Positions 1,537 to 29,180 of a stretch of 29,239 nucleotides of DNA are shown one piece after another. Under the pieces are notes generated by a model. The model was not told the origin of the DNA and did no database searches. It saw only the letters and a list, made by a program, of their open reading frames with translations. Every line of letters begins with the position of its first letter. Within the stretch, counting starts at the first letter, position 1. The stretch covers positions 1-29,239 of the forward strand of contig JANRJA010000165.1 in the NCBI GenBank assembly GCA_033764315.1. Direction: 5' to 3'. The translations under genes and the position numbers were made by a program. Origin of the DNA: Oculatellaceae cyanobacterium bins.114 (GTDB lineage: Bacteria > Cyanobacteriota > Cyanobacteriia > Elainellales > Elainellaceae).

Positions 1537-2817
1537 TTAGGCACTAATCGTAGATTGATACATCAGCTTGCGAGCTGAGACCATTCCTTCAACCAACAAA
1601 TCCATCTCCTCACGGGTATGCAGTGAATTGACCGTAATCCGCATACGAGGCTTGGCGATAAACCAGATTGGAGACAACCATAGCCCGTAGTCGTTCATCA
1701 ACACGCGAGCAAACACTTTAGGATTTAGATCGGGTGGCAAAATAACAGGGATAACGTTTGTTTCACCGATCGCCTCAAAGTCATTTTCAAGGAGTTGCGA
1801 TCGCAGGTAACGGGTGTTGTCCTGGAGTTGTTTGACTAACTCTGGATGCTGACGCACTTGACGAATGCTCTCTAAAGCCGCCGCTGTGGTTGGAGGTGGC
1901 AGTGAGATCGTACCAATCGAGGTTGGAGAGACATTTAACAAGGGCTTTAACTCAGCAACGTGGCTACTAATAGCCGCTCCAGCCGAGGCCGCAAATTTAG
2001 AGAAGGTGGTCATAATCAGTGGCACGACACCCCGCTCAATGGCATTTTGAGGCAATAGACCAAAGTGTTCATAGATACCTCTGCCGGTTGCACCCAACGC
2101 GCCGCTAGCATGAGCCTCATCCATCACCAAAACACTTCCTTCGTAGTTTTGCATGATGTCGATCATGGTCGGCAGCGGAGCAATGTCACCATCCATTGAG
2201 AAGACCGCATCTGACACCACCATAATGCGGTCGTCAGGGCGAGAATATCGTTGTAGTTTACGCGCCAAATCTTCCATATCGCAGTGGCGGTAGGCCCGCA
2301 CCCGCACCCGGGGGCTGTGCCCAAATAGCTTTCCAGAGCGAGTTCCCGCATTGGCGATCGCTGAGACGATACAACCATGATTTAACACATCTGTCAAAAT
2401 CAGGGTTTCGCGAGTGTGTTCAAATCCGGGCACCGGAATAGCTAGATGACAAAAAGCATCCATCAGAGCTTGCATCGCCATCCACGCATTTAAAAATAGC
2501 TGCGTATGTTGCAGGTGCTTAAACTCTGAAATTTCATTTTCGAGCTGGCGATGAATGTCAATCCGACCACTCAACACTGAGCACGAACTATTTGAAGTAC
2601 CATATTGCAGAATGGAGTCGATTGCCGCTTGTTGAACGGCTGGGTTTTGGGTCAACCCTAAAACGTCATTGGTACAAAATGTTAGTACCGTACGACGATT
2701 ACCGGTTTCAGATTCTTCAATCTCAACCAGGTTTCCTTGCTTGCGATGGCAGATATATTCATCGGGATCAAGCCCACTTTCGTACCAACGCTGAACGTAT
2801 TCTTTAACAACTTGCAC
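1537..2817 (-). CDS. PLP-dependent alpha-oxoamine synthase family protein (BioF/KBL/SPT-like), divergent
   Basis: NDVLGL, D.LNHGCI, YRHCDMEDL, DAVFSMDGD, DEAHASG and TFSK (PLP lysine) motifs. GTG start with GAGGGGAG upstream. Confidence 0.88.
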   Translation of the reverse strand: MQVVKEYVQRWYESGLDPDEYICHRKQGNLVEIEESETGNRRTVLTFCTNDVLGLTQNPAVQQAAIDSILQYGTSNSSCSVLSGRIDIHRQLENEISEFKHLQHTQLFLNAWMAMQALMDAFCHLAIPVPGFEHTRETLILTDVLNHGCIVSAIANAGTRSGKLFGHSPRVRVRAYRHCDMEDLARKLQRYSRPDDRIMVVSDAVFSMDGDIAPLPTMIDIMQNYEGSVLVMDEAHASGALGATGRGIYEHFGLLPQNAIERGVVPLIMTTFSKFAASAGAAISSHVAELKPLLNVSPTSIGTISLPPPTTAAALESIRQVRQHPELVKQLQDNTRYLRSQLLENDFEAIGETNVIPVILPPDLNPKVFARVLMNDYGLWLSPIWFIAKPRMRITVNSLHTREEMDLLVEGMVSARKLMYQSTISA

Positions 2818-3057
2818 AGTAAACTCCCCTCACCTTGTTTCGTAAGTCACTGATCGCCTCTATCCCAACACTTGATTCCAACCTGGTAGCCCTGGTTTTA
2901 AGCCAACGTTGAATGAGAGAGGTGCTCACAATTGTGATTGTGACATTGAACTCATTCCTTCGCGACCCCGGCTTTGCCTAAAATTTTTGCCATAGCTTGA
3001 TCAAGGTTGACCCGCGTAGACATCAGAACTTAGGCAGAATAATTTACAATCAGATAA

Positions 3058-4209
3058 TTACCCGACTGAACTTTCCGAGGTTTGCTCAACCTGACCTACC
3101 CCTGCTTTTGTGAAAGCAACGGTGCGTTGTGAATCTCCATTGCGATGACCTTGTAATTGACTTGATTGTTGCACAAATTGTTCATACTGCCGGACAACTA
3201 ACCGTTGAAGAGCGATAATTGCCGGATTAATTTCGACATAACGGCGATCGCGTCCAGCTTCATAGGTCTGCTGCTCGCTTTCAATCATTTCAACGTCTTG
3301 ATTGAGGAAGCGCATAAAAACAAACCGTCGAATAAAGGGGATCACAGCGGGTTTAACAAAATCTCTCAACCAATTTGGCAAGGGAATTTGAAGGAACAGC
3401 AGTGAAAATGACCGCGTCTCATTAGGACTCACTGGCAACCGCATCAGGTGTAACGAAGAAACCCCTTCAAGCGTGCTGTGATAGTGAGGATATTTGTAGT
3501 GAACGGTCACAGTCCGAGTGGTTACACCATCTCCCTCAGTGCTTAAGCCCAAGACTTTAGAAATCCAACCCTGATAACGCACCTGATATTGAGCACGAAC
3601 GGTTCCTTCACCCTCTCTCAAGCTTAACAGAACCGGGTCAAACCAGCCCTGGAGGTTGTTATGCAAAAACCCGTGAAACACATCCATTGTGTTTTCGTTG
3701 CAGATTGAAAAGTGTGCCTTGAAGCGACCCGTAATTGGCACCATCATCCAGTTTGGGTTATCGTATTCAGGCACTTCAGGAAAAGGAACAATCTCTGCCA
3801 GGGCAGGATCACCCGGAAAAACCCAAACTACTCCATATTTTTCGCGGATAGGATAGCTTCGAGCTTGGGCACAGGGCAATTTTTGTTCTTTAGGAAAGTA
3901 AGGGATGTTGACGCATTCTCCCTTCGTATTAAATTCCCAACCGTGATAAGGGCAAACGATGTTATCTCCCTGTAGTTGCCCCTTGTGAAGAACGACTCCT
4001 TTGTGAGGGCATGCATCTTCAATCGCTCGGGCGTGACCCTGACTATCACGATAGAGCGCGATCGCTTGTTGCCAGACCATCGTAGGCAAGATTGCTCCGG
4101 TCTTTAACTGGTCTGCCCAGGCAACTGGATACCAGTAGTTGGGGTTGATACCAACCTCCCGCACCGCATTTCGGACTGTTTGACCCTTAAGAGTTGTTGC
4201 CAATTCCAT
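3058..4209 (-). CDS. Rieske [2Fe-2S] non-heme iron oxygenase alpha subunit
   Basis: CPHKG...CPYHGW Rieske ligands, ENTMDVFHGFLH mononuclear-iron motif, NQD near the C-terminus. AGAGG RBS. Confidence 0.93.
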   Translation of the reverse strand: MELATTLKGQTVRNAVREVGINPNYWYPVAWADQLKTGAILPTMVWQQAIALYRDSQGHARAIEDACPHKGVVLHKGQLQGDNIVCPYHGWEFNTKGECVNIPYFPKEQKLPCAQARSYPIREKYGVVWVFPGDPALAEIVPFPEVPEYDNPNWMMVPITGRFKAHFSICNENTMDVFHGFLHNNLQGWFDPVLLSLREGEGTVRAQYQVRYQGWISKVLGLSTEGDGVTTRTVTVHYKYPHYHSTLEGVSSLHLMRLPVSPNETRSFSLLFLQIPLPNWLRDFVKPAVIPFIRRFVFMRFLNQDVEMIESEQQTYEAGRDRRYVEINPAIIALQRLVVRQYEQFVQQSSQLQGHRNGDSQRTVAFTKAGVGQVEQTSESSVG

Positions 4210-15409: not shown

Positions 15410-16036
15410 ATGGCTATGGCGGTCGATCCAGTAATTCAACAGCAGCCACTGAGCTTTGACGAGTTTCTCACTCGTTATGGTGGCGATAACCGCTACGAAC
15501 TGATCGATGGAGAGGTGTTTGATTTGGAACCAGTCGGTTTACATGAGGAAGTTTCTGCCTTCATTACCGCAAAGCTCTGTGTTCAAATTGAAGCCATCGG
15601 TTTACCCTGGTTTGTGCTTCAACGGGGACTATTGCGCCCTTCTAACATGGGCATGACCGCGTTTCGACCCGATGTCGCCGTGGTTGATCGAGATGAATTG
15701 ATCAAAGAACCGCTTTGGTCTGAGCAATCGATTTTGACGCTGGGCAGTTCGATCAAGTTTGTTGCAGAAGTGGTGAGTCGCAATTGGCAAAATGACTATG
15801 CCCGAAAAGTTGAAGATTACGCCGTTTTGGGCATTTCTGAATATTGGATAGCAGACTACGCCGGATTGGGGGGGACTCGACACATTGGCAATCCCAAACA
15901 ACCCACTCTGTCTATTTGTACGTTAGTCGATGGGGAATATGAAATTCAGCCATTGCGAGGCGACCAAGCGATTGTCTCTCCCACCTTCCCAAATTTAACT
16001 CTCACGGCTGAGCAGGTGTTGCAGGCTGGTCGATAG
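15410..16036 (+). CDS. Uma2 family (DUF820) endonuclease
   Basis: RYELIDGE, H, RPDVAVV, VAEVVS, DY.RK..DYA.LGI.EYWI, SPTFP.L.L. Confidence 0.93.
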   Translation: MAMAVDPVIQQQPLSFDEFLTRYGGDNRYELIDGEVFDLEPVGLHEEVSAFITAKLCVQIEAIGLPWFVLQRGLLRPSNMGMTAFRPDVAVVDRDELIKEPLWSEQSILTLGSSIKFVAEVVSRNWQNDYARKVEDYAVLGISEYWIADYAGLGGTRHIGNPKQPTLSICTLVDGEYEIQPLRGDQAIVSPTFPNLTLTAEQVLQAGR

Positions 16037-16136: not shown

Positions 16137-16730
16137 TTAACGGCTAGCTGAAAGCCCTTGCTGAAATGCTTGTACAGCTTCTGCCAAACTTGTCTCACCC
16201 AATAAAATGCAGCGTTTTAGCAAATCTAGATCGAGAGATGTCAGTCCTGGTAGTTCACTCTGACTGACTTCCTCATAAACCGCTTCTCGCAAATGATAGA
16301 GTCGCAGTGTACCGTCCTCCCAGAACCAGACTTCGGGTACTTTCAACGTCCGGTATTTTGGTAGTTTGCTCAACCCACCACTGGTGTAGACTACCTCAAT
16401 CGACAAGTCAGGAATCGGTTTCGCTTCTCCCAAGCAATAGGATTTATCCGCTTGGGTTGAAACTTCTCCCTCTTTTTCTTGAGTCATAGAACCAGATGGA
16501 TGAAACTGAATTCCCTGCATCAGCAGGAAAGTCGTCACTAAGTAGCCAATGATTTCTGAAAAGTTTTCGTGTTGAAATCCTGGCATGAGAATTTCGATGG
16601 TGCCTGCAAAAAAAGAAAGCTTAACCCCAGGCGAATCTTCCGAAGCCTTTTGAATCAACTTAAACTGCTCCCAAGTACCGTTGAGTACCACTCGCTGATC
16701 GAGGGTTTCCCTTAAGAGAGTCTGTGTCAT
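16137..16730 (-). CDS. Uma2 family endonuclease (second subtype)
   Basis: EILMPGFQHE, ADKSYC, PDLSIEVV.TSG, KY..L.VPEVWFW. True start likely ATG 16730; the ORF-track extension overlaps the next gene. Confidence 0.92.
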   Translation of the reverse strand: MTQTLLRETLDQRVVLNGTWEQFKLIQKASEDSPGVKLSFFAGTIEILMPGFQHENFSEIIGYLVTTFLLMQGIQFHPSGSMTQEKEGEVSTQADKSYCLGEAKPIPDLSIEVVYTSGGLSKLPKYRTLKVPEVWFWEDGTLRLYHLREAVYEEVSQSELPGLTSLDLDLLKRCILLGETSLAEAVQAFQQGLSASR

Positions 16731-16857
16731 GAAATCATGCTCTGGTGAATTGCCTATCCTCATCATATAGCGACAGATTCTCTCGTTTCCCAAGCTATAG
16801 TCAAAAACGCGAGTTTTGAACTCCCCGGCTGCTGGCAGCAACCGGAGAGTTAGCAAG

Positions 16858-18357
16858 CTAAAAGTCATTGGTGAGGATGGCTTCGCCGCGCCGATGCAAT
16901 TCACGGGCATAGTCTGTCCAGGTGCCCTGCCCCCAATAGCGGAAACAACTCGTTTGCAGCAAGAGATTGTGCAGCAATGCGTTGCGATAGCGAGTTTGCT
17001 GAGCCAGAGAGGGATCAGCGGCTAGTAAGGGATCGATCACTTGATGAAAGTGATTGCTGAGTTGAGCCATCGGGGTCAAAACATTTTCGTAGCCCTTAGT
17101 CCAACTGAGGTTGTTAGTCCAGGAGCTACCATCCATATGGAAGTTGGGAATCTCTTGTTTGAGAGCGTCAATGGTTTGGGCAACTGATTCGGTCGTGGTG
17201 GAATCGGGGTCAACTCGGCTCCAGATGTGGTGTTGTCCCACGGCTTGACAGGGGGGGTAATCATCAGGATTGCAGCCCGCCGCTTCGATCAGTTCCAAAT
17301 ATTCAGTGCCATTTAGCCCCACAACACCGCGATTGCCCTGCCCGCGCAGGTCATACCAGGCCGTCTTAAACGCACTGGGGAACTCATTCATCATCACTCC
17401 CCCATTTTCACCGTCCCCAATTTGGGACACCAGGGGCGGAATGGAGACACCGCTAATGGTTTGGCGAGTGAGCGTCTTGGCTTCGTAATAGGGCTGCATT
17501 TGCCCCACGAGTTTGGTGTCAGACCCTTGAGTTTTAATCAAAGCGGTGATGCTGATACTTTCTCCGTGAGAGTTGCGGGCGACGAGGCGATGGGGAAGGT
17601 GTTTGTAGCCCAGGGATTCCCCCGTTAAGGTTTCTACAGAGTGTTCCTGTACGAGAATCCAGCGGTAGCCACAATCTTTTAGGGCTTTGACAAATTCATA
17701 GAGCGTATCGGGATGGTTGGGCAAATGCATCTCTGGCGGTGAGAAGCCTTTGACTCGTGCCAGAGCATCCCAACCAAAAATCGCGGCGAAGTGGTGTTGC
17801 CATGCTTGGATGTGGAGCTTGATATCGGGAATGGGGGTCGAGGGCACAACGGCATGGCTCCACATGGTGCCGAGCCACTCGACATAGGGTTGATAGGTGC
17901 GATCGCAGGCAATCCGTTTGAGCGAGTCGAGCACATCATCCCGTCCCATTTGCCGCAAGCCCCACAGCAAATTGCCAGAGTAGTCGAGCATGACACGAGG
18001 GTTACAGCCCTGACTCACCAGCTTTGGAATCAAGTCGCCCATGCGGGAATAGCACCACGCAAATACCCCAGCGTTGTGATTATCACCCTCGCCCTGATGC
18101 TCAAACATATATTGCAGGTTGCTGATCAGTTCGCCGTTTGCCCCTGCCGGAATGGTGGGTTGGTGCATATGCAGGGCGATCGCACATCCAGCGGTAATAT
18201 TCTCTAATTGAAGATTGGTATCGAGTAGAAACACTGAACCCGATTGTTGCGTCACATTAGATACCTGAGATTCCCAACCACTGAGATTGGGCAACCCATC
18301 AATGAGTTCTGGAAACTCAGAAGCCGTCGCGGCACTGGATGAAGGGGCAGATAGCAT
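16858..18357 (-). CDS. glycoside hydrolase family 57-like protein
   Basis: ALHMHQP, GFSPPEM, GDGENGG, LQTSCFRYW motifs. AGGAGA RBS. Confidence 0.88.
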   Translation of the reverse strand: MLSAPSSSAATASEFPELIDGLPNLSGWESQVSNVTQQSGSVFLLDTNLQLENITAGCAIALHMHQPTIPAGANGELISNLQYMFEHQGEGDNHNAGVFAWCYSRMGDLIPKLVSQGCNPRVMLDYSGNLLWGLRQMGRDDVLDSLKRIACDRTYQPYVEWLGTMWSHAVVPSTPIPDIKLHIQAWQHHFAAIFGWDALARVKGFSPPEMHLPNHPDTLYEFVKALKDCGYRWILVQEHSVETLTGESLGYKHLPHRLVARNSHGESISITALIKTQGSDTKLVGQMQPYYEAKTLTRQTISGVSIPPLVSQIGDGENGGVMMNEFPSAFKTAWYDLRGQGNRGVVGLNGTEYLELIEAAGCNPDDYPPCQAVGQHHIWSRVDPDSTTTESVAQTIDALKQEIPNFHMDGSSWTNNLSWTKGYENVLTPMAQLSNHFHQVIDPLLAADPSLAQQTRYRNALLHNLLLQTSCFRYWGQGTWTDYARELHRRGEAILTNDF

Positions 18358-18707: not shown

Positions 18708-21700
18708 ATGACGGCAAGAGTGCCGACTACGCTTGTAAATAGTTTGCAATTAGCCAAACAGGGCGATGCAGAAGCGATCGCGGCTTTGGTCAATCGAGCT
18801 TTGCAGCCACAAAACATTTGGGTAGCAGCCGTTTCGGTAGAAGGCGATCGCCTGCACTTGGTGTTGGAGTCAGCACAAGCTCCCGCCCAAGAAACCGTGG
18901 TGCCCTTTATCCGGCAGAGTCTTAATCAACTGGGATCAGAGGCATTTCGAGCGGTAGTGCTCTATGGCAAATCTCAGTCTCAGTCAACTCAACTGTGGGA
19001 ACAGGAGATTGTCCTAGAGGTTCTGGCTCGTTCAAGCACCAAAGACAATACCCACTTGGATGCTCTAAATTTGAGTGCAACAGAGCGATCGCAGACCGTG
19101 GGAGAGGCAGATTCTCCTGAGTCGAGTGGCATCGCGACCGTGGCAGAGATGCCTGCGACTTGGCTCGATCCAGATCTGGAAAATAGTGCCCAGATGGCGA
19201 TCGGGAACAAGGTAATGCATCAAACTTCGCGCGGAGGAGTCGTCAACCTGGTGTCAGGACAGGGGCGATTGGTCGTGCGATCGCGGCTAGTCTCGACTCC
19301 CTCGCAAGGCAGTCAACCGTTTCCAGATTTGCTCGATCGCCAACTTGAAACCGAAGAAGCGATCGCCGCCTTGCAAGCAGGCTCCTCAGTGGCATTTTTT
19401 GGTGAAACCGGATCAGGTAAAACGGCTCTGTTGCGATCGCTAGCCCATCATAGCGAGTTGGCAGGTGCCTTTCGCGACGGCATAGTGTATCAACGGGGAC
19501 GCTTCCACTCAGCCAGTGACGTCTTGCAGTCCTTATTTGACGCCTTTTTTGAATGCGACAGTCCAATCGCTATCCGCCCTACTAGCGATGAACTGCGTCA
19601 AGCCTTTCAAAGCCATCGAGCATTGGCAATTTTAGATGATTTAGATTTGCCAGAAACTGAGGTGGCTCACCTTCACAGCCTACCGGGATTGGTAATTCTC
19701 TCGGCCAGTCAAGAACGCCAATTGTGGAATCGTGTCAACGCTATGCCCATGTTGGGGTTGCCATTAAACGATGCCCTGACACTGGTTGAGCGAGGATTGG
19801 GGCGATCGCTCACACCAGACGAGCGACCTCATGCAGAAGAACTGTGTAATTTGGTACACGGACATCCGCTGCGAATCTTGCAACTGGCGGCACTGGTGCG
19901 CGAAGACAATCAGACATTGGCGATCGTGGTGCAGCGGTTGCGAATTGCCCCCATGATGGATGCTTTGCCCCTGAAATCGGCGGTGTCGTTGCCAGAGGCA
20001 GAGCGGCGAGTGTTAGCGGTGTTGGTGGTGCTAGATGGCATTTCAATTCGGGCGGAGCATCTGGCAGCCCTAACCGGATTGCCCAACATTCAAACCGTAC
20101 TGGCAACCCTAACACGACGCCATCTGGTACTGAGTGACCATGCCCGTTATTACCTGGCACAAACCATCGTCACAGCGTTACGCCAAGCCTGGGATTTAAG
20201 CCAGTGGACTCAGCGGGTCATCACCTATTTTTATCGTTGGTTAGAGCGGCAATCGCAACCCAAGGCATTGATGCCCGAACTAGAGGTGTTGTTACAAGTG
20301 TTGCGTCTGGCAGTGACAACACAACACCCCCCGGTCGTGTTGCGGTTGACTCAATACCTCGATCCGGTTTTGGTGGCTCAAGGTCGATGGAGTGCTTGGG
20401 AACAGGCATGGCAGTGGGCATTGCAAGCGGGGCGATCGCTCCAAGACCCGGCCGCGATGGCAACGGCACTGCACCAGTTGGGAACCCGTGCCTTGATTCT
20501 GGATGATCCCCTGACGGCTCACACCTATCTGACTGAAGCGTTGCAACTGCGAGACTCGTTGGGCGATCGCCCCGGAGCCGCCGCCACCCGTCATAATTTG
20601 GAATTGGTATTGACCCTACCCACCGAGGTTGATCCCGTTGCGGTAGCGGCTGTTCCACCTCGTCCTCTAACAGAGAAACGCTTTCCAACACAAGCCGCGA
20701 TTGTGATTGGCAGTTTGGGGATGGCGATCGCGGGGATGGTTTTACTCCTCAATCCGTTTCCTAGACCCGCCAGTTTTTCGCTGAGTGCGACCCGCTTGGG
20801 CTTTGGGGAACAAACCCTCAACACCACCAGTGCTGATCGGCAGACTGTGCGCCTTGTTAACACTGGCTCCAGACCCTTAGAGATCAGCAGTATCACGCCA
20901 TCGGGCAATAGCAAAGACGACTTTCAAGTCACCGAAGATTGCACCGCTGCCCCGATCGCCCCTAATGACGACTGCACCCTTGAGATCACCTTTACCCCTC
21001 AAGCCGAGGGCGATCGCTTAGCCACCGTGGTGATCCTCGATCGCGCCGGAGATAACCCTCAAGAACTGCTGCTCAGCGGCATTGGCACCCCTCCGACCAG
21101 TCCGTTTGTGCTCAGTTTTGCACCAGGTAATGTCGCCTTTGAGCCACAAGCGGTTAACACAGACAGCAAACCCCAATCCATCATGGTGACTAACACCGGG
21201 TCAGAGCCAGTGGCGATCGCCAGAGTCACCCTAACTGGAGAACAGGCCAGCGAATTTAAAAGCACGACCAACTGTGCCAATGCCACCCTTGAACCTAAGC
21301 AAACCTGCCGCATTCAAGTTGTCTTTACTCCCCAAGCCCTCAACAATCGTCGTGCCAGTGTCTTAATTACGGCCAAAGGAGAAACAGACGTGTTGGCATC
21401 ACGTGAGTTACCCGACCAACCGCCGCCCTTTTGGAATATTCCGCTCACAGGCACTGGAGCCACCACATCGACCCTGGCCAATCCCACAACGTCTACAACA
21501 ACACCGACAACAACGTCTACCTCTACCGCTGTCCCACGAGTCAGCCTCAGCCTCAGCGAACTCCACTTTGGCATTCAAGGGATCGAGACTCGCGCTGAAA
21601 AACCCCTGGTCATTGCCAATACCGGGACAGCCTCTCTCTATATTGATGACTTAAATATTGCTGGAGAAAATGCCAGAGACTTTGCTATTACAGACAATAC

Positions 21701-22493
21701 CTGTCTGGATGGCCCCATTCTGGCAGATGATGGCTGCATTGTGACAGTGCGCTTTAGTCCTCGTGGAGAGGGCGATCGCCAAGCCGATTTAGTGATTCGC
21801 GATAGTGCGGCAGGCAGTCCTCGTCGCATTGTGTTAAGCGGCACAGGGATGCGATCGCCCTCTGCCTCCCCATCTCCCAGTGCCTCATCGCCAACCATTC
21901 TCAGTTTTGCTGCCGCTGACTCCCAGATCAAAGCCGGGGAATCTACACAACTCTGCTATGGAGTCGCCAATGCAACCCAGGTTGTCATTGAAGGCATTGG
22001 CGAAGTTGCGCCTACCTCTGAAGACTGTGTAACCGTAGAACCGGGGCAAACTACCACCTATAACCTGACAGCGATCGGGGCAGGAGGTCAAGAAGTCACC
22101 GCTCAAACCACCGTCCGAGTGGGGCAACCAGAGACAGACCCGACCGAACCTATCCCCCCACTCACAACCCCTCAATCACTCTCGCCCGGTAGCTCCACTC
22201 GTGACGCCGCACCAGACTTGTTAACTTGCAAAAACAGTACTCCTCTGACCTGGCAATCGACCACGCGCAACGGAGCTGGAACAGACATGCTGACGCTGCA
22301 ACAGTTTTCAGCCGACTATCAGGATTGGATGACCGTCTTTGAGGAACCATTGCCAGCGGGCACCGATGTCACCCCCTGGCTCACCCAACATCAAGGCTAT
22401 GAGTGGCGTTGGATGGTGCGATCGCTGGATGCAGCAGGGCGTTCTAGCGAACCCTCTCCCTGGTATTACTTCACTTGTTATGACTTGCGGTAA
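18708..22493 (+). CDS. membrane-spanning STAND (NB-ARC-like) NTPase with TPR region and C-terminal ASH/choice-of-anchor-D Ig-like repeats
   Basis: Walker A GETGSGKT, Walker B LAILDD, GHPL (GxP), ALHQLG...AATRHNL TPR-like helices, one TM helix (~20694-20750), three L.FG...NTG..PL.I...DF....C...C...V.F.P...G.R...L.G.G repeats. Confidence 0.85.
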   Translation: MTARVPTTLVNSLQLAKQGDAEAIAALVNRALQPQNIWVAAVSVEGDRLHLVLESAQAPAQETVVPFIRQSLNQLGSEAFRAVVLYGKSQSQSTQLWEQEIVLEVLARSSTKDNTHLDALNLSATERSQTVGEADSPESSGIATVAEMPATWLDPDLENSAQMAIGNKVMHQTSRGGVVNLVSGQGRLVVRSRLVSTPSQGSQPFPDLLDRQLETEEAIAALQAGSSVAFFGETGSGKTALLRSLAHHSELAGAFRDGIVYQRGRFHSASDVLQSLFDAFFECDSPIAIRPTSDELRQAFQSHRALAILDDLDLPETEVAHLHSLPGLVILSASQERQLWNRVNAMPMLGLPLNDALTLVERGLGRSLTPDERPHAEELCNLVHGHPLRILQLAALVREDNQTLAIVVQRLRIAPMMDALPLKSAVSLPEAERRVLAVLVVLDGISIRAEHLAALTGLPNIQTVLATLTRRHLVLSDHARYYLAQTIVTALRQAWDLSQWTQRVITYFYRWLERQSQPKALMPELEVLLQVLRLAVTTQHPPVVLRLTQYLDPVLVAQGRWSAWEQAWQWALQAGRSLQDPAAMATALHQLGTRALILDDPLTAHTYLTEALQLRDSLGDRPGAAATRHNLELVLTLPTEVDPVAVAAVPPRPLTEKRFPTQAAIVIGSLGMAIAGMVLLLNPFPRPASFSLSATRLGFGEQTLNTTSADRQTVRLVNTGSRPLEISSITPSGNSKDDFQVTEDCTAAPIAPNDDCTLEITFTPQAEGDRLATVVILDRAGDNPQELLLSGIGTPPTSPFVLSFAPGNVAFEPQAVNTDSKPQSIMVTNTGSEPVAIARVTLTGEQASEFKSTTNCANATLEPKQTCRIQVVFTPQALNNRRASVLITAKGETDVLASRELPDQPPPFWNIPLTGTGATTSTLANPTTSTTTPTTTSTSTAVPRVSLSLSELHFGIQGIETRAEKPLVIANTGTASLYIDDLNIAGENARDFAITDNTCLDGPILADDGCIVTVRFSPRGEGDRQADLVIRDSAAGSPRRIVLSGTGMRSPSASPSPSASSPTILSFAAADSQIKAGESTQLCYGVANATQVVIEGIGEVAPTSEDCVTVEPGQTTTYNLTAIGAGGQEVTAQTTVRVGQPETDPTEPIPPLTTPQSLSPGSSTRDAAPDLLTCKNSTPLTWQSTTRNGAGTDMLTLQQFSADYQDWMTVFEEPLPAGTDVTPWLTQHQGYEWRWMVRSLDAAGRSSEPSPWYYFTCYDLR

Positions 22494-26988: not shown

Positions 26989-27060
26989 ATGTCCCGGCAG
27001 GATTTGAACCTGCAACCCTCTGTTTGTAAGACAGATGCTCCACCCTTGAGCTACAGGACT
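26989..27060 (-). tRNA. trnV: tRNA-Val(TAC), 1:72 mismatch, possibly degenerate
   Basis: Anticodon arm TCTGT-CTTACAA-ACAGA; T arm GCAGG-TTCAAAT-CCTGC; acceptor AGTCCTG/CGGGACA; no CCA. Confidence 0.8.
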
Positions 27061-27065
27061 ACGAG

Positions 27066-27137
27066 AGCGGATGATGGGACTCGAACCCATGCGCTGAGTG
27101 TGGCGCACTCAGATGCTTGCCGCTACATCACACCCGC
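27066..27137 (-). tRNA. trnG: tRNA-Gly(GCC) with C33
   Basis: TGAGT-GCGCCAC-ACTCA; acceptor GCGGGTG/CATCCGC; U73; no CCA. Confidence 0.8.
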
Positions 27138-27143
27138 ATTTTT

Positions 27144-27218
27144 TGGAGCGAAAGACGAGATTCGAACTCGTGTCTCCTGGTTGGAAGCCAGGGATGCTTG
27201 CCGCTGCACCACATTCGC
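27144..27218 (-). tRNA. trnG: tRNA-Gly(TCC)
   Basis: CCTGG-CTTCCAA-CCAGG; U73-CCA. Confidence 0.9.
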
Positions 27219-27222
27219 ATTC

Positions 27223-27298
27223 TGGGGCTGGTGACAGGATTTGAACCTGCAACCTTTCGCTTACAAGGCGATTGCTCTTCCGACTGAGCTACACCAGC
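27223..27298 (-). tRNA. trnT: tRNA-Thr(TGT)
   Basis: TCGC-CTTGTAA-GCGA; acceptor GCTGGTG/CACCAGC; C73-CCA. Confidence 0.92.
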
Positions 27299-27301
27299 AT
27301 A

Positions 27302-27374
27302 AGCAGATGGCGAGGCTTGAACTCGCGTCCAGGACATACCAAATCCTGATGCTGACCGACTACACCACATCTGC
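27302..27374 (-). tRNA. trnT: tRNA-Thr(GGT)
   Basis: AGGAT-TTGGTAT-GTCCT; acceptor GCAGATG/CATCTGC; U73; no CCA. Confidence 0.82.
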
Positions 27375-27377
27375 ATT

Positions 27378-27452
27378 TGGAGCAGGTGACAGGAGTTGAA
27401 CCTGCATGAAGGCTGTACGAAAACCTCATGTTGCCCGTTACATCACACCTGC
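27378..27452 (-). tRNA. trnT: tRNA-Thr(CGT)
   Basis: AGGTT-TTCGTAC-AGCCT; acceptor GCAGGTG/CACCTGC; U73-CCA. Confidence 0.85.
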
Positions 27453-27458
27453 ATTGGT

Positions 27459-27556
27459 TGGACGCGGGGGTGAGAGTTGCACTCACCGTTGCGAAGCACT
27501 CCCGAAGGGAACCGCAGCTTATGAGACTGCTGAGCCGCTCTTGCTCTATCCCCGCT
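27459..27556 (-). tRNA. atypical tRNA with CAT anticodon (Met/fMet/Ile2 unresolved), 27-nt variable region
   Basis: AGCGGGG-ATA-GAGC-AAGAGCG-GCTC-A-GCAGT-CTCATAA-GCTGC-[27 nt]-GTGAG-TGCAACT-CTCAC-CCCCGCG-T-CCA. Confidence 0.75.
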
Positions 27557-27557
27557 A

Positions 27558-27631
27558 TACCCCCGGCGAGAGTCGAACTCGCAACAATCCGGGTTTAAGC
27601 CGGGTACGTCTGCCAATTGCGTCACAGGGGC
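27558..27631 (-). tRNA. trnL: tRNA-Leu(TAA), short variable loop
   Basis: CCGG-CTTAAAC-CCGG; variable TTGTT; G1.U72, A73; no CCA. Confidence 0.85.
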
Positions 27632-27634
27632 ATT

Positions 27635-27710
27635 TGGTGGGTTGTATAGGGTTTGAACCTATGCACTTCCGCTTAAGAGGCGGCTGCTCTACCAACTGAG
27701 CTAACAACCC
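27635..27710 (-). tRNA. trnK: tRNA-Lys(CTT)
   Basis: CCGC-CTCTTAA-GCGG; acceptor GGGTTGT/ACAACCC; A73-CCA. Confidence 0.93.
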
Positions 27711-27741
27711 GTTTTTCTGCTAGTCAACCGAAGGTTGAACT

Positions 27742-27817
27742 TGGTGGGTCGCCAGAGATTTGAACTCTGATCTGTCTGCTTAAAAGGCAGCCACTCTAAC
27801 CGTTGAGCTAACGACCC
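27742..27817 (-). tRNA. trnK: tRNA-Lys(TTT)
   Basis: CTGC-CTTTTAA-GCAG; acceptor GGGTCGT/GCGACCC; A73-CCA. Confidence 0.9.
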
Positions 27818-27820
27818 GAA

Positions 27821-27895
27821 TGGTCTGAGTGATAGGGATTGAACCTACGACCTCCGGTTCCCCGAACCGACGTGCTCCCACTGCACCACACTCAG
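27821..27895 (-). tRNA. trnP: tRNA-Pro(GGG) with C33
   Basis: TCGGT-TCGGGGA-ACCGG; C1-G72; A73-CCA. Confidence 0.82.
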
Positions 27896-27900
27896 ATATG

Positions 27901-27978
27901 TGGTACACCGAGCAGGAGTTGAACCTGCTAATAACACGCTTATCGGGCGTGCGCGTCCACCACTTCCGCCTTCGGTGC
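27901..27978 (-). tRNA. trnI: tRNA with GAT (Ile) anticodon, C33, Leu-like body
   Basis: CACGC-CCGATAA-GCGTG; D arm GCG-GAAGTGGTGGA-CGC; G1.U72; A73-CCA. Confidence 0.75.
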
Positions 27979-27979
27979 T

Positions 27980-28055
27980 TGGTACTCCCGGTGGGAATCG
28001 AACCCACAAAATCTAGATCCTCGGTCTAGAGCGTCTTCCCTTCCGCCACAGGAGC
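27980..28055 (-). tRNA. trnL: tRNA-Leu(GAG) with C33, short variable loop
   Basis: CTAGA-CCGAGGA-TCTAG; variable ATTTT; G1.U72; A73-CCA. Confidence 0.8.
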
Positions 28056-28060
28056 ATCAG

Positions 28061-28134
28061 TACCCTTGGTGGGAGTCGAACCCACAAAATCTGGTCTCTC
28101 AAGCCAGCACGTCTGCCAGTTGGGTCACAAGGGC
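28061..28134 (-). tRNA. trnL: tRNA-Leu(GAG) with U33, short variable loop
   Basis: CTGGC-TTGAGAG-ACCAG (C31.A39 mismatch); variable ATTTT; A73; no CCA. Confidence 0.78.
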
Positions 28135-28137
28135 AAA

Positions 28138-28213
28138 TGGTCGGGATGGTAGGATTTGAACCCACGACTCCTTGGTCCCAAACCAAGGCTTCTGACCACT
28201 GAATTACATCCCG
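28138..28213 (-). tRNA. trnP: tRNA-Pro(TGG)
   Basis: CTTGG-TTTGGGA-CCAAG; acceptor CGGGATG/CATCCCG; A73-CCA. Confidence 0.93.
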
Positions 28214-28218
28214 ATACT

Positions 28219-28298
<80 letters not shown>

Positions 28299-28300
28299 AT

Positions 28301-28377
28301 TGGTACTCCTGGCAGGAGTCGAACCCGCACATGACTGGTTTTGAGACAGCTGCCTCTTCCGATTGGGCTACAGGAGT
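28301..28377 (-). tRNA. trnL: tRNA-Leu(CAA), short variable loop
   Basis: GCTGT-CTCAAAA-CCAGT; variable CATGT; acceptor ACTCCTG/CAGGAGT; A73-CCA. Confidence 0.85.
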
Positions 28378-28383
28378 GAGACA

Positions 28384-28428
28384 TGGGAGGAATACAGGGG
28401 ACTGCCCCAGGCGACTGTTTACCTCCCA
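28384..28428 (-). ncRNA. non-tRNA structured element embedded in the array
   Basis: TGGGAGG...CCTCCCA 7-bp stem enclosing ACAG/CTGT and GGGG-CAGT-CCCC pairings; no T-loop or anticodon arm. Confidence 0.4.
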
Positions 28429-28429
28429 A

Positions 28430-28501
28430 CTGCCCCGCCAGGGTTTAAACCTGGAACTTCGCTTTCAAAGAGCGAGATGTTGCCAGTTACACCACAAGGC
28501 A
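28430..28501 (-). tRNA. trnQ: tRNA-Gln(TTG)
   Basis: TCGCT-CTTTGAA-AGCGA; U1-A72; G73; T loop TTTAAAC; no CCA. Confidence 0.85.
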
Positions 28502-28507
28502 TTGAAT

Positions 28508-28584
28508 TGGATGCCGAGGCTGGGGTCGAACCAGCATCTCCGTGATTCAGAGTCACAGCGACTTTCCATGTCGTCCACTCGGCA
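28508..28584 (-). tRNA. trnQ: tRNA-Gln(CTG)
   Basis: TGTGA-CTCTGAA-TCACG; acceptor TGCCGAG/CTCGGCA; U73-CCA. Confidence 0.85.
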
Positions 28585-28589
28585 ATGAA

Positions 28590-28664
28590 TGGCTGCCCCA
28601 GCAGGACTTGAACCTGCAACCTCGCGGTTAACAGCCGCTCGCTCTGCCATTGAGCTATAGGGCA
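28590..28664 (-). tRNA. trnN: tRNA-Asn(GTT)
   Basis: GCGG-CTGTTAA-CCGC; U1-A72; G73-CCA. Confidence 0.93.
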
Positions 28665-28669
28665 ATGAG

Positions 28670-28742
28670 TGGGAAGTGACGGGATCGAACCGCCATCTCG
28701 CCGTCTTCAGCGGCACGTGAGCACCAGCTTCACCAACTTCCC
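28670..28742 (-). tRNA. trnF: tRNA-Phe(GAA)
   Basis: TGCCG-CTGAAGA-CGGCG; acceptor GGGAAGT/ACTTCCC; A73; no CCA. Confidence 0.85.
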
Positions 28743-28747
28743 ACAAG

Positions 28748-28835
28748 CGGAGGCTAAGAGAATCGAACTCTTGACGGTATATTTCACCCGCAGGCGTTTT
28801 CAAGACGCTTTCCTCGTCCGTGCCGGACAACCTCC
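28748..28835 (-). tRNA. trnS: tRNA-Ser(TGA)
   Basis: GCGT-CTTGAAA-ACGC; long variable arm; acceptor GGAGGTT/AGCCTCC; G73; no CCA. Confidence 0.85.
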
Positions 28836-28840
28836 CTGTT

Positions 28841-28917
28841 TGGCGAGGACGGAGGGACTCAAACCCCCACTCTTCAGGTTCGTAATCTGAGATGTTGTTC
28901 AGTTACACCACGTCCTC
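28841..28917 (-). tRNA. trnR: tRNA-Arg(ACG)
   Basis: TCAGA-TTACGAA-CCTGA; acceptor GAGGACG/CGTCCTC; A20; G73-CCA. Confidence 0.85.
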
Positions 28918-28922
28918 AAAGG

Positions 28923-29003
28923 CGGAGAGTAGTGGAATCGAACCACAATTGTTCATCCATCTGTTTAGCAAACAGCGCCAACGTCCTAATTGGTTTACTC
29001 TCC
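28923..29003 (-). tRNA. trnS: tRNA-Ser(GCT)
   Basis: CTGT-TTGCTAA-ACAG; acceptor GGAGAGT/ACTCTCC; G73 followed by CCT; weakly paired 12-nt variable arm. Confidence 0.78.
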
Positions 29004-29008
29004 ATGAT

Positions 29009-29093
29009 TGGTAGGTCGGGCAGGAGTCGCACCTGCAACGCAAGAAGCGGCTGTTTTACAGACAGTTGCCCACGCTGATAGGCGAGCCGACCT
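29009..29093 (-). tRNA. trnY: tRNA-Tyr(GTA), non-canonical D/T loops
   Basis: CTGT-CTGTAAA-ACAG; 13-nt variable arm; T loop TGCGACT; acceptor AGGTCGG/CCGACCT; A73-CCA. Confidence 0.82.
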
Positions 29094-29103
29094 ATGTCGA
29101 ATT

Positions 29104-29180
29104 TGGCAGTGCCGACGGGAGTTGAACCCGCAAACGCAGCATTGAAAGTGCTGTGGCTTTACCGATTTGCCTACGGCACC
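29104..29180 (-). tRNA. trnE: tRNA-Glu(TTC)
   Basis: CAGCA-CTTTCAA-TGCTG; acceptor GGTGCCG/CGGCACT; G73-CCA. Confidence 0.88.

Follow-up and report, generated by a model that had tools for sequence, protein, structure and literature searches.

Genomic context of a tRNA-Ile(GAU) gene

The window, i.e., the whole stretch of 29,239 nucleotides that we analyzed, belongs to Oculatellaceae cyanobacterium bins.114 and carries a long series of tRNA genes near its end. One of these genes, at positions 27901-27978 on the reverse strand, is called as a tRNA-Ile(GAU) by ARAGORN. The Rfam model RF00005 also matches this gene (27904-27978; 44.9 bits, in comparison to a gathering score of 29; E 1.1e-7), and its score ranks 19th of the array's 21 RF00005 matches above the cut-off. 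The features that are discussed below are as follows.

26989..29180, - strand: long tRNA array; 24 tRNA genes are called, all on this strand (ARAGORN)
27901..27978, - strand: tRNA gene with anticodon GAU, 78 nt (ARAGORN, Rfam, 63 further copies)
27901-27903, - strand: encoded CCA of tRNA-Ile(GAU)
27904, - strand: its discriminator base A73
27929..27934, - strand: its 6-nt variable loop UUAUUA, with A48 as the last base
27935..27951, - strand: its anticodon arm, with stem CACGC/GCGUG including C29-G41
27940-27946, - strand: its anticodon loop, C32 C33 G34 A35 U36 A37 A38, with C33 at 27945
27942..27944, - strand: its anticodon, G34 A35 U36
27953..27969, - strand: its D arm, of the Leu (class II) type, with a 3-bp stem and G13.A22
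27971, - strand: A8, in place of the near-universal U8
27980..28055, - strand: neighboring short tRNA-Leu(GAG), located upstream as to transcription with a 1-nt spacer; its C33 is at 28022

The array belongs to the long tRNA arrays (L-arrays) of cyanobacteria and is of the type of the Anabaena trn operon. As L-arrays, we accepted sets of no fewer than 20 tRNA genes, with at least 2 genes per kb, on one strand and with a gene order in common with known arrays; here, the 24 genes lie within 2.2 kb, in an order common with that of PCC 7120. The array runs past the end of the window and continues with seven more tRNA genes on another contig (C117), and ARAGORN finds 68 tRNAs in the whole assembly. 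Its best match among plasmids is plasmid pA of Kovacikia minuta (82.4% identity over 96% of the query), which is the sole record with at least 80% coverage among 159 matching plasmid records. The gene order is also common to plasmid arrays of Nostoc, Tolypothrix and Calothrix.

The window's other genes are ordinary and look chromosomal, e.g., genes for a DHQ synthase-like protein, a B12 radical SAM protein, an ABC transporter and Uma2 nucleases. There are two genes of the Uma2 family, at 15410-16036 and 16137-16910. An ORF of 1261 amino acids (18708-22493, + strand) combines an NB-ARC/NACHT-type NTPase region with several Ig-like domains of the ASH/DUF1573 type.

The assembly contains no second tRNA-Ile(GAU) and no match to 16S rRNA, and is 90.7% complete. 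The proposal that the array gene is the genome's sole tRNA-Ile(GAU) therefore holds for this assembly only, which is incomplete and lacks 16S rRNA. Because of this incompleteness and the missing 16S rRNA, a housekeeping tRNA-Ile(GAU) is probably absent from the assembly together with the rRNA operons. The genome has one IleRS gene and one LeuRS gene; no extra paralogue of either was found in the genome, and no synthetase gene was found near the array. In the carrier genome G000, the IleRS and LeuRS enzymes lie at C41:84952-87483 and C41:610-3162.

Related arrays are represented among metatranscriptome contigs from four studies, and one contig of 612 nt corresponds to 27527-28138 of the window with 10 differences. 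Since such libraries may contain DNA, these contigs, which convey neither ends nor strand nor expression level, are a weak sign that related arrays are transcribed. No sequencing run contained half of the sampled words, the best reaching 0.45. In Anabaena sp. PCC 7120, the trn operon is silent in normal growth and is induced by antibiotics that target the ribosome, with chloramphenicol or tetracycline having been used for this, and induction by translational stress is known for Anabaena only (PMC8421152).

Structure of the tRNA-Ile(GAU)

The acceptor stem consists of G1.U72, C2-G71, A3-U70, C4-G69, C5-G68, G6-C67 and A7-U66, and is followed by A8 and G9. The D stem is GCG/CGC and the D loop is AAGUGGUGG, with the residues A14 A15 G16 U17 G18 G19 U20 G20a G21, position 26 is G, and the T arm is GCAGG/CCUGC. 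Pair 12-23 is G-C, instead of U-A. A previous, sequence-only reading of this DNA had listed G1.U72, C2-G71, A73, C4-G69, A8, the GAU anticodon, A37, A38 and C29-G41, and had remarked that U12-A23 is missing; we found each of the former features to be present, and G12-C23 in the place of the latter.

The near-universal U8 and U33 are absent, and A8 and C33 occur in all copies of the gene. By comparison, U occupies position 8 in 1183 of 1337 array tRNAs and position 33 in 1227 of 1337. These two deviations breach near-universal rules for tRNAs, and could weaken folding or use by the ribosome. Thermodynamic folding yielded no cloverleaf (z -1.85), a kind of result that is uninformative for a tRNA.

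Substitution of C33 for U33 is found in 99 of the 1337 array tRNAs, and 87 of these belong to four families with G34, i.e., Ile-GAU (30), Leu-GAG (29), Gly-GCC (17) and Pro-GGG (11).

Distribution and conservation

In genomes and metagenomes, we found 63 copies of the gene beyond that of the window, representing 18 distinct 78-mers. To these searches belongs a pattern that specifies the D arm and the anticodon stem and leaves the anticodon loop unconstrained. Applied to one genome per species (185,579 species), this free-loop pattern matched 49 loci, comprising 31 array copies, 17 tRNA-Leu genes and one site that is not a tRNA. In every one of the 31 array copies, the loop is CCGAUAA. Their hosts include Leptolyngbya, Kovacikia, Phormidesmis, Stenomitos, Oculatella, Elainella, Scytolyngbya and others. 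The 17 non-array tRNAs are ordinary tRNA-Leu genes with long arms (anticodons CAG, GAG and CAA) from other phyla, and include no other isotype. A stricter version of the pattern found 28 copies in metagenomes, all with GAU and all within arrays, so that the loop CCGAUAA is invariant in 59 of 59 matches (31 genomic and 28 metagenomic). A search of viral contigs with a pattern for the tRNA-Ile(GAU) body gave 0 matches, and thus no sign of a phage source.

The tRNA-Ile(GAU) is a real tRNA under constraint. When the 16 distinct intact sequences are aligned, the cloverleaf is obeyed in 99.7% of cells, with lower values in shuffled and slid controls. The pair A7-U66 is replaced by G7-C66, a compensatory change, in five of the 16 sequences, and all three one-sided changes within stems retain pairing. 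G12-C23 is kept in 15 of the 16 and is unpaired in one. A8 is found in 30 of 30 called copies. In one copy (L040), which ARAGORN does not call, a pair of the D stem is broken.

Over 29 arrays, copies are 95-100% identical, with a median identity to the window's gene of 0.987, a ranking that is biased upward because these arrays were found via this very gene. Of the 24 genes, only Pro(UGG) has a higher median (1.0), and the medians of the other 22 range from 0.66 to 0.96.

Most arrays do not contain the gene. It occurs in one of 10 plasmid arrays that we fetched, and full-length matches occur in three of 401 sampled cyanobacterial genomes (G000, G080 at two places, and G294). In a survey that is independent of tRNA-Ile(GAU), with Pro(UGG) as the query, 26 of the 401 genomes were matched, and the Ile gene is present only in G000 and G080 among these; this query missed G294, although G294 carries the Ile gene. 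None of the 11 inspected loci from the Pro(UGG) survey contains the gene, nor does any of 16 arrays from one genus (g4; L014-L029). From these counts, it follows that the arrays are generally without tRNA-Ile(GAU), and that one sub-lineage, which occurs mostly in Leptolyngbya-like and other thin filamentous cyanobacteria, acquired it.

Resemblance to tRNA-Leu

The sequence-only reading had drawn attention to the Leu(GAG) gene 1 nt away (27980-28055) and to features that the two genes have in common, and this comparison was borne out. Both genes have G1.U72, C2-G71, C4-G69, A73, C32 and C33, as well as a D arm of the form GCGGAAG..GACGC and a U-rich variable loop. Among 65 loci, a total that includes a few places in duplicate, tRNA-Ile(GAU) directly follows Leu(GAG) in 42, and the spacer is 1 nt in 41. 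The upstream Leu(GAG) occurs in two distinct forms, one having a GCGGAAGGGAAGACGC-type D arm (23 loci) and the other form being present at 19 loci; for this, arrays L012 and L013 were compared with those of the window, L001 and L040. The shared D arm and C32 occur in only one of these forms, while C33 occurs in both. Because both forms have C33, the loop sequence C33-G34-A35 of Leu(GAG) and tRNA-Ile(GAU) fits a common origin.

As references for housekeeping tRNAs, we used a genome from the same family (42 tRNAs) together with the window's own genome. The D arm of tRNA-Ile(GAU) is closest to those of tRNA-Leu, with identities of 0.82-0.88. For the D arm, G26 and the anticodon stem taken together, the identity is 0.86 to housekeeping Leu(GAG) versus 0.72 to housekeeping tRNA-Ile, and the anticodon stem (CACGC/GCGUG) matches that of housekeeping Leu(GAG) (CACGU/GCGUG) at nine of 10 positions. 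The T arm is of a type generic to the arrays; the acceptor stem has no particular resemblance. When the anticodon loop is left out of the comparison, the array sequences that come closest (0.67-0.72 identity) are tRNA-Leu with five different anticodons and an atypical Glu(UUC).

We also scored the gene with home-made profile HMMs for each isotype, built from array tRNAs minus the anticodon loop, which correctly classed 161 of 171 held-out sequences. The tRNA-Ile(GAU) scores 14.8 bits with the Leu model, followed by Met (13.7), Asn (13.0), Val (12.3) and Thr (11.9), while housekeeping tRNA-Leu sequences reach 21.8-28.5 bits with the Leu model, with clear margins. Scoring by isotype models, which had been suggested as a check, is thus ambiguous: Leu comes first, but by only 1.1 bits over Met. 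The related claim, that the gene derives from a Leu paralogue, holds up in part. A Leu-type ancestry of the D arm and anticodon stem appears supported by the identities of 0.86 versus 0.72, by the fact that all 17 non-array matches to these elements are tRNA-Leu, and by the gene's position 1 nt after a Leu(GAG) gene in 41 of 65 loci. The body as a whole, however, would not clearly be classed as Leu.

An atypical group of array tRNAs

We defined a tertiary core as positions 8-9, the D loop, the variable loop and the T loop. The array paralogue that is closest to tRNA-Ile(GAU) is the atypical Glu(UUC), with identities of 0.77-0.81 in this core and 0.90 in the anticodon stem; His(GUG) and Leu are the next closest in core and stem. 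Ile(GAU), Glu(UUC) and His(GUG) have A8 in common, as well as a variable loop of 6 nt whose last base is A. Of the unique array tRNAs of class I size, 29 have both features, 16 have A8 only, 14 have the loop only and 792 have neither. All 29 are Ile(GAU), His(GUG), Glu(UUC) or CAU tRNAs (arrays L001-L133). This pattern suggests that A8 and the 6-nt loop form part of an alternative tertiary core that is common to array tRNAs of different identities. Because the nearest relatives of its core have A8 and the 6-nt loop, tRNA-Ile(GAU) is, as judged by its sequence, a member of a group that is specific to the arrays and combines Leu-type D arms with an altered core. Synthetases for Glu, His and CAU tRNAs recognize the anticodon or the acceptor end.

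Identity elements for IleRS and LeuRS

According to PMC9976931, bacterial IleRS relies on A73, C4-G69, U12-A23, G16, U20, U21, C29-G41, G34, A35, U36, A37 (modified to t6A) and A38. All of these are present in tRNA-Ile(GAU), except for U12-A23 and U21, although it should be considered that the rules are those of E. coli and not of cyanobacteria. Counted by E. coli determinants of IleRS, the tRNA has nine of 11. Position 21 is G, and G16 and U20 are present, where the numbering of the D loop, which has extra residues, is our own assignment. G16 is found in eight of nine distinct tRNA-Ile(GAU) sequences, versus one of 163 array tRNA-Leu and none of nine housekeeping tRNA-Leu sequences.

For E. 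coli LeuRS, the elements given are A73, A15-U48, G18G19, A20a and D-loop/T-loop contacts, with neither the anticodon nor the long variable arm being required, and an element of Aquifex LeuRS is U8:A14 (PMC9976931). In 163 unique array tRNA-Leu sequences, U8 is found in 162, A20a in 150 and U48 in 162, and adjacent positions of the D loop vary freely. All three residues are present in nine of nine housekeeping tRNA-Leu sequences, such that the combined counts are 171 of 172 for U8, 159 of 172 for A20a and 171 of 172 for U48. By these E. coli and Aquifex rules, which are not specific to cyanobacteria, tRNA-Ile(GAU) departs from tRNA-Leu at each position, with A8, G20a and A48 in all nine distinct sequences that ARAGORN parsed. 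The long variable arm of class II is absent as well, in favor of the 6-nt loop. Retained elements are A73, A14, A15 and the placement of G18G19; the alpha region has 4 nt, as it does in 127 of 163 array and eight of nine housekeeping tRNA-Leu sequences.

Read against these rules, the changes relative to tRNA-Leu point in one direction: U36, A37, A38 and G16 would be gained for IleRS, while U8, A20a and U48 would be lost for LeuRS. However, A8 and A48 are common to the array's Glu, His and CAU tRNAs, and may therefore be a property of the scaffold rather than the outcome of selection against LeuRS. Some recognition by LeuRS is conceivable, given A73, A14, A15 and the Leu-type placement of G18G19.

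The array's own tRNA-Leu genes are unusual in their size. All five (27557-27632, 27980-28055, 28060-28134, 28219-28295 and 28301-28377, - strand) are 75-77 nt long, with variable loops of 5 nt and without the long variable arm. In 151 of the 163 unique array tRNA-Leu sequences (L001-L133), the variable loop measures 4-7 nt, while A73, U8, A14, A15, A20a and U48 are kept. tRNA-Leu is said to retain its long arm everywhere except in animal mitochondria (PMC9976931), a statement that is contradicted by the short-armed tRNA-Leu genes of these arrays.

Comparison to known systems

The trn operon of PCC 7120 (PMC8421152, PMC10272220), which corresponds to positions 1935-4186 of plasmid delta (L002), resembles the window's array in its gene order (Asp-Glu-...-Gln-Leu-Pro-Leu-Lys-Leu-...-Thr-Gly-Val), in that it has many encoded CCA ends and short Leu genes, and in that some members have A8. 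Unlike the window's array, the PCC 7120 array and nine of the 10 fetched plasmid arrays are without a gene of the Ile(GAU) type. In the PCC 7120 array, no GAU tRNA was found among the 24 genes called by ARAGORN, with Rfam at E values up to 1, or in a scan for GAU hairpins with a 5-bp stem and a 7-nt loop. Two GAU hairpins exist there, both of which are in spacers.

An operonic tRNA-Ile-GAU of Anabaena is reported to have an aberrant mobility in acid gels, with misacylation among the candidate causes (PMC8421152). We considered this tRNA as a possible orthologue, but it cannot be mapped, as no GAU tRNA was found in the PCC 7120 array.

Alloacceptor remoulding, described for metazoan mitochondria (PMC4783518) and eukaryotic nuclear genomes (PMC3923123), produces tRNAs that, like tRNA-Ile(GAU), are in part closer to another acceptor family. 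A further likeness to remoulded tRNAs is that tRNA-Ile(GAU) adjoins its likely source gene and has itself been kept as a gene that looks functional. In contrast to the cases in these two papers, tRNA-Ile(GAU) lies in a bacterial array that is spread horizontally, and its likely source is a class II tRNA-Leu that was already shortened to class I size. It is also unlike a single anticodon substitution, since it differs from tRNA-Leu at positions 36, 37, 38, 8, 16, 20a and 48.

The nev-tRNAs of nematodes (Hamashima et al. 2012, via PMC4033280) similarly combine an Ile or Gly anticodon with a Leu-type body, and nev-tRNA-Gly decodes GGG as Leu. They are a direct precedent for the idea of mistranslation put forward in the sequence-only reading; however, they keep the long variable arm and the recognition elements of tRNA-Leu, whereas tRNA-Ile(GAU) lacks the arm and three of the Leu elements. 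A bacterial example of a mismatch between anticodon and body is tRNA-ProX of Streptomyces and Kitasatospora, which has been linked to stress tolerance (PMC10404621). In contrast to tRNA-Ile(GAU), which has no synthetase paralogue and whose donor elements are eroded, tRNA-ProX usually lies beside a special ProRS isoform and keeps its proline identity. In primates, a conflict between anticodon and isotype model was flagged from genome sequence, as for tRNA-Ile(GAU), but that case consists of one recent base change, limited to a few species, whereas tRNA-Ile(GAU) is old, widely spread and much modified.

In the full-text literature that we searched, including PMC8421152, PMC4758250 and PMC10272220, we found no description of a Leu-derived tRNA-Ile in these arrays, or of tRNA-Leu genes without the long arm.

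Possible explanations

We consider it probable, though by no means certain, that tRNA-Ile(GAU) was remoulded from a Leu-type ancestor and is now charged by IleRS. Under this hypothesis, it would be a working, extra tRNA of a cyanobacterial L-array that spreads horizontally. The remoulding would have taken place inside the array, where a D arm and anticodon stem of the Leu(GAG) type acquired an Ile-type anticodon loop. This step would have required U36, A37 and A38, with G34 and A35 in existence beforehand, and the ancestral gene would already have been of class I size, as are all tRNA-Leu genes of these arrays. In its present state, the gene would belong to the small, atypical array group with A8 and a 6-nt variable loop. 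The host's single IleRS is predicted to charge it with isoleucine, because of its anticodon loop, A73, C4-G69, C29-G41, G16 and U20, and it would decode AUC and AUU when the array is switched on. Rejection by LeuRS would be expected, since the tRNA has lost A20a and the pairs U8:A14 and A15:U48.

An alternative, which agrees with what the sequence-only reading had proposed, is that the tRNA has a dual identity and causes mistranslation: LeuRS would charge it by way of its Leu-type D arm and elbow together with A73, and a fraction of AUC and AUU codons would be read as Leu when translational stress induces the array. Such a role would be in keeping with the placement of G18G19 as in tRNA-Leu (alpha region of 4 nt), with A14, A15 and A73, with the fact that only tRNA-Leu genes match the free-loop pattern outside the arrays, and with the indifference of E. 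coli LeuRS to the anticodon and to the long variable arm (PMC9976931). Misacylation is one candidate cause of the aberrant gel mobility of the Anabaena operonic tRNA-Ile-GAU, and mistranslation in Anabaena is reported to have been assayed at UUC codons only (PMC8421152). Moreover, tRNA-ProX in Streptomyces (PMC10404621) and the nematode nev-tRNAs (PMC4033280) provide precedents. However, U8, A20a and U48, which are near-constant in 172 tRNA-Leu sequences, are replaced in every parsed copy, and the score of the whole body with the Leu model is weak in comparison to those of housekeeping tRNA-Leu. Further, Ile-type residues occupy each of the positions 36, 37 and 38. Such a combination fits a tRNA that reads ANN codons and is recognized by IleRS better than it fits a bare anticodon slip. 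There is also no dedicated synthetase paralogue like that which accompanies tRNA-ProX, and, given that no GAU gene was found in the PCC 7120 array, the gel result is not attributable to an orthologue. Mistranslation is thus unsupported by the identity elements, and we regard mischarging with Leu as possible, but rather unlikely. In its specific form, in which both IleRS and LeuRS charge the tRNA and a measurable share of AUC and AUU codons goes to leucine under translational stress, the idea is an unlikely one by our estimate; were it true, it would amount to a programmed, isobaric and hitherto invisible statistical mistranslation, encoded on a mobile element in many filamentous cyanobacteria.

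It is also imaginable, but quite unlikely in our judgment, that the RNA is made and perhaps charged, and has its main role outside of decoding, e.g., as a sponge or decoy for toxins that cleave tRNAs and are induced along with the array under stress, or in some other non-canonical function. A sponge role has been proposed for operonic tRNAs, some of which are cleaved while the matching housekeeping tRNAs are spared, and the array's anticodons do not match codon usage (PMC8421152). The combination of A8 and C33 is unusual for a substrate of the ribosome, as well. A decoy would not obviously need a complete set of IleRS determinants, however, and the anticodon loop is invariant and fully Ile-like, A73 and CCA are kept, changes in the acceptor stem are compensatory, and Anabaena operonic tRNAs are present in polysomes (PMC8421152). 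Some of these observations also speak against a decaying pseudogene, i.e., a functionless copy of a Leu gene with a mutated anticodon. This explanation could draw on the low Rfam score relative to the rest of the array, on A8, C33 and G1.U72, and on the damaged copies, i.e., two kinds with insertions in the T loop and one with a break in the D stem. Yet, it would need to account for 95-100% identity over 29 arrays whose other genes have medians as low as 0.66, for an anticodon loop that does not vary in 59 of 59 free-loop matches and for the compensatory exchange of A7-U66 and G7-C66, and we view it as highly implausible.

If tRNA-Ile(GAU) is indeed a remoulded tRNA charged by IleRS, bacteria would thereby offer a clear case of a tRNA that changed its amino-acid family, with steps that are still visible, namely a D arm and anticodon stem of the Leu type, a loop of the Ile type, the loss of Leu elements and the gain of an Ile element. 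The change of family would have occurred on a mobile element that supplies its host with a second, inducible set of tRNAs. Few positions distinguish the short tRNA-Leu genes, their Ile derivative and the A8 family from one another, and so these would form a compact natural test set for recognition by cyanobacterial LeuRS and IleRS. The gene also bears on the question, raised for Anabaena, of whether array tRNAs are misacylated.

Other unusual tRNAs in the arrays

Two kinds of tRNA-Ile(GAU) (L093/L141 and L130/L150) contain insertions of ~21-25 nt at an identical site in the T loop, which contain a small hairpin. In the window, a 104-nt gap (27453-27556, - strand) occupies the position of a CAU tRNA in other arrays. 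This gap contains a remnant resembling a CAU tRNA with a similar hairpin insertion, which neither ARAGORN nor Rfam calls. The hairpin insertions in the tRNA-Ile(GAU) copies and in the CAU remnant may be very small mobile repeats.

A degenerate tRNA resembling Tyr(GUA), in which the variable arm is long and the T loop altered, is located at 29013-29092 (- strand) of the window. Its score of 28.1 bits is slightly below the Rfam cut-off, and other arrays carry Tyr(GUA) at this place. In the PCC 7120 array, a tRNA-like gene at L002:2280-2363 has an anticodon loop of 22 nt, and is likely one of three pseudogenes. Finally, a few arrays contain tRNAs called as Ile(UAU) (L006:3320-3398, and also in L094, L113 and L133); the body of the L006 example appears to be of the Lys(CUU) type, and its anticodon arm to be disturbed.
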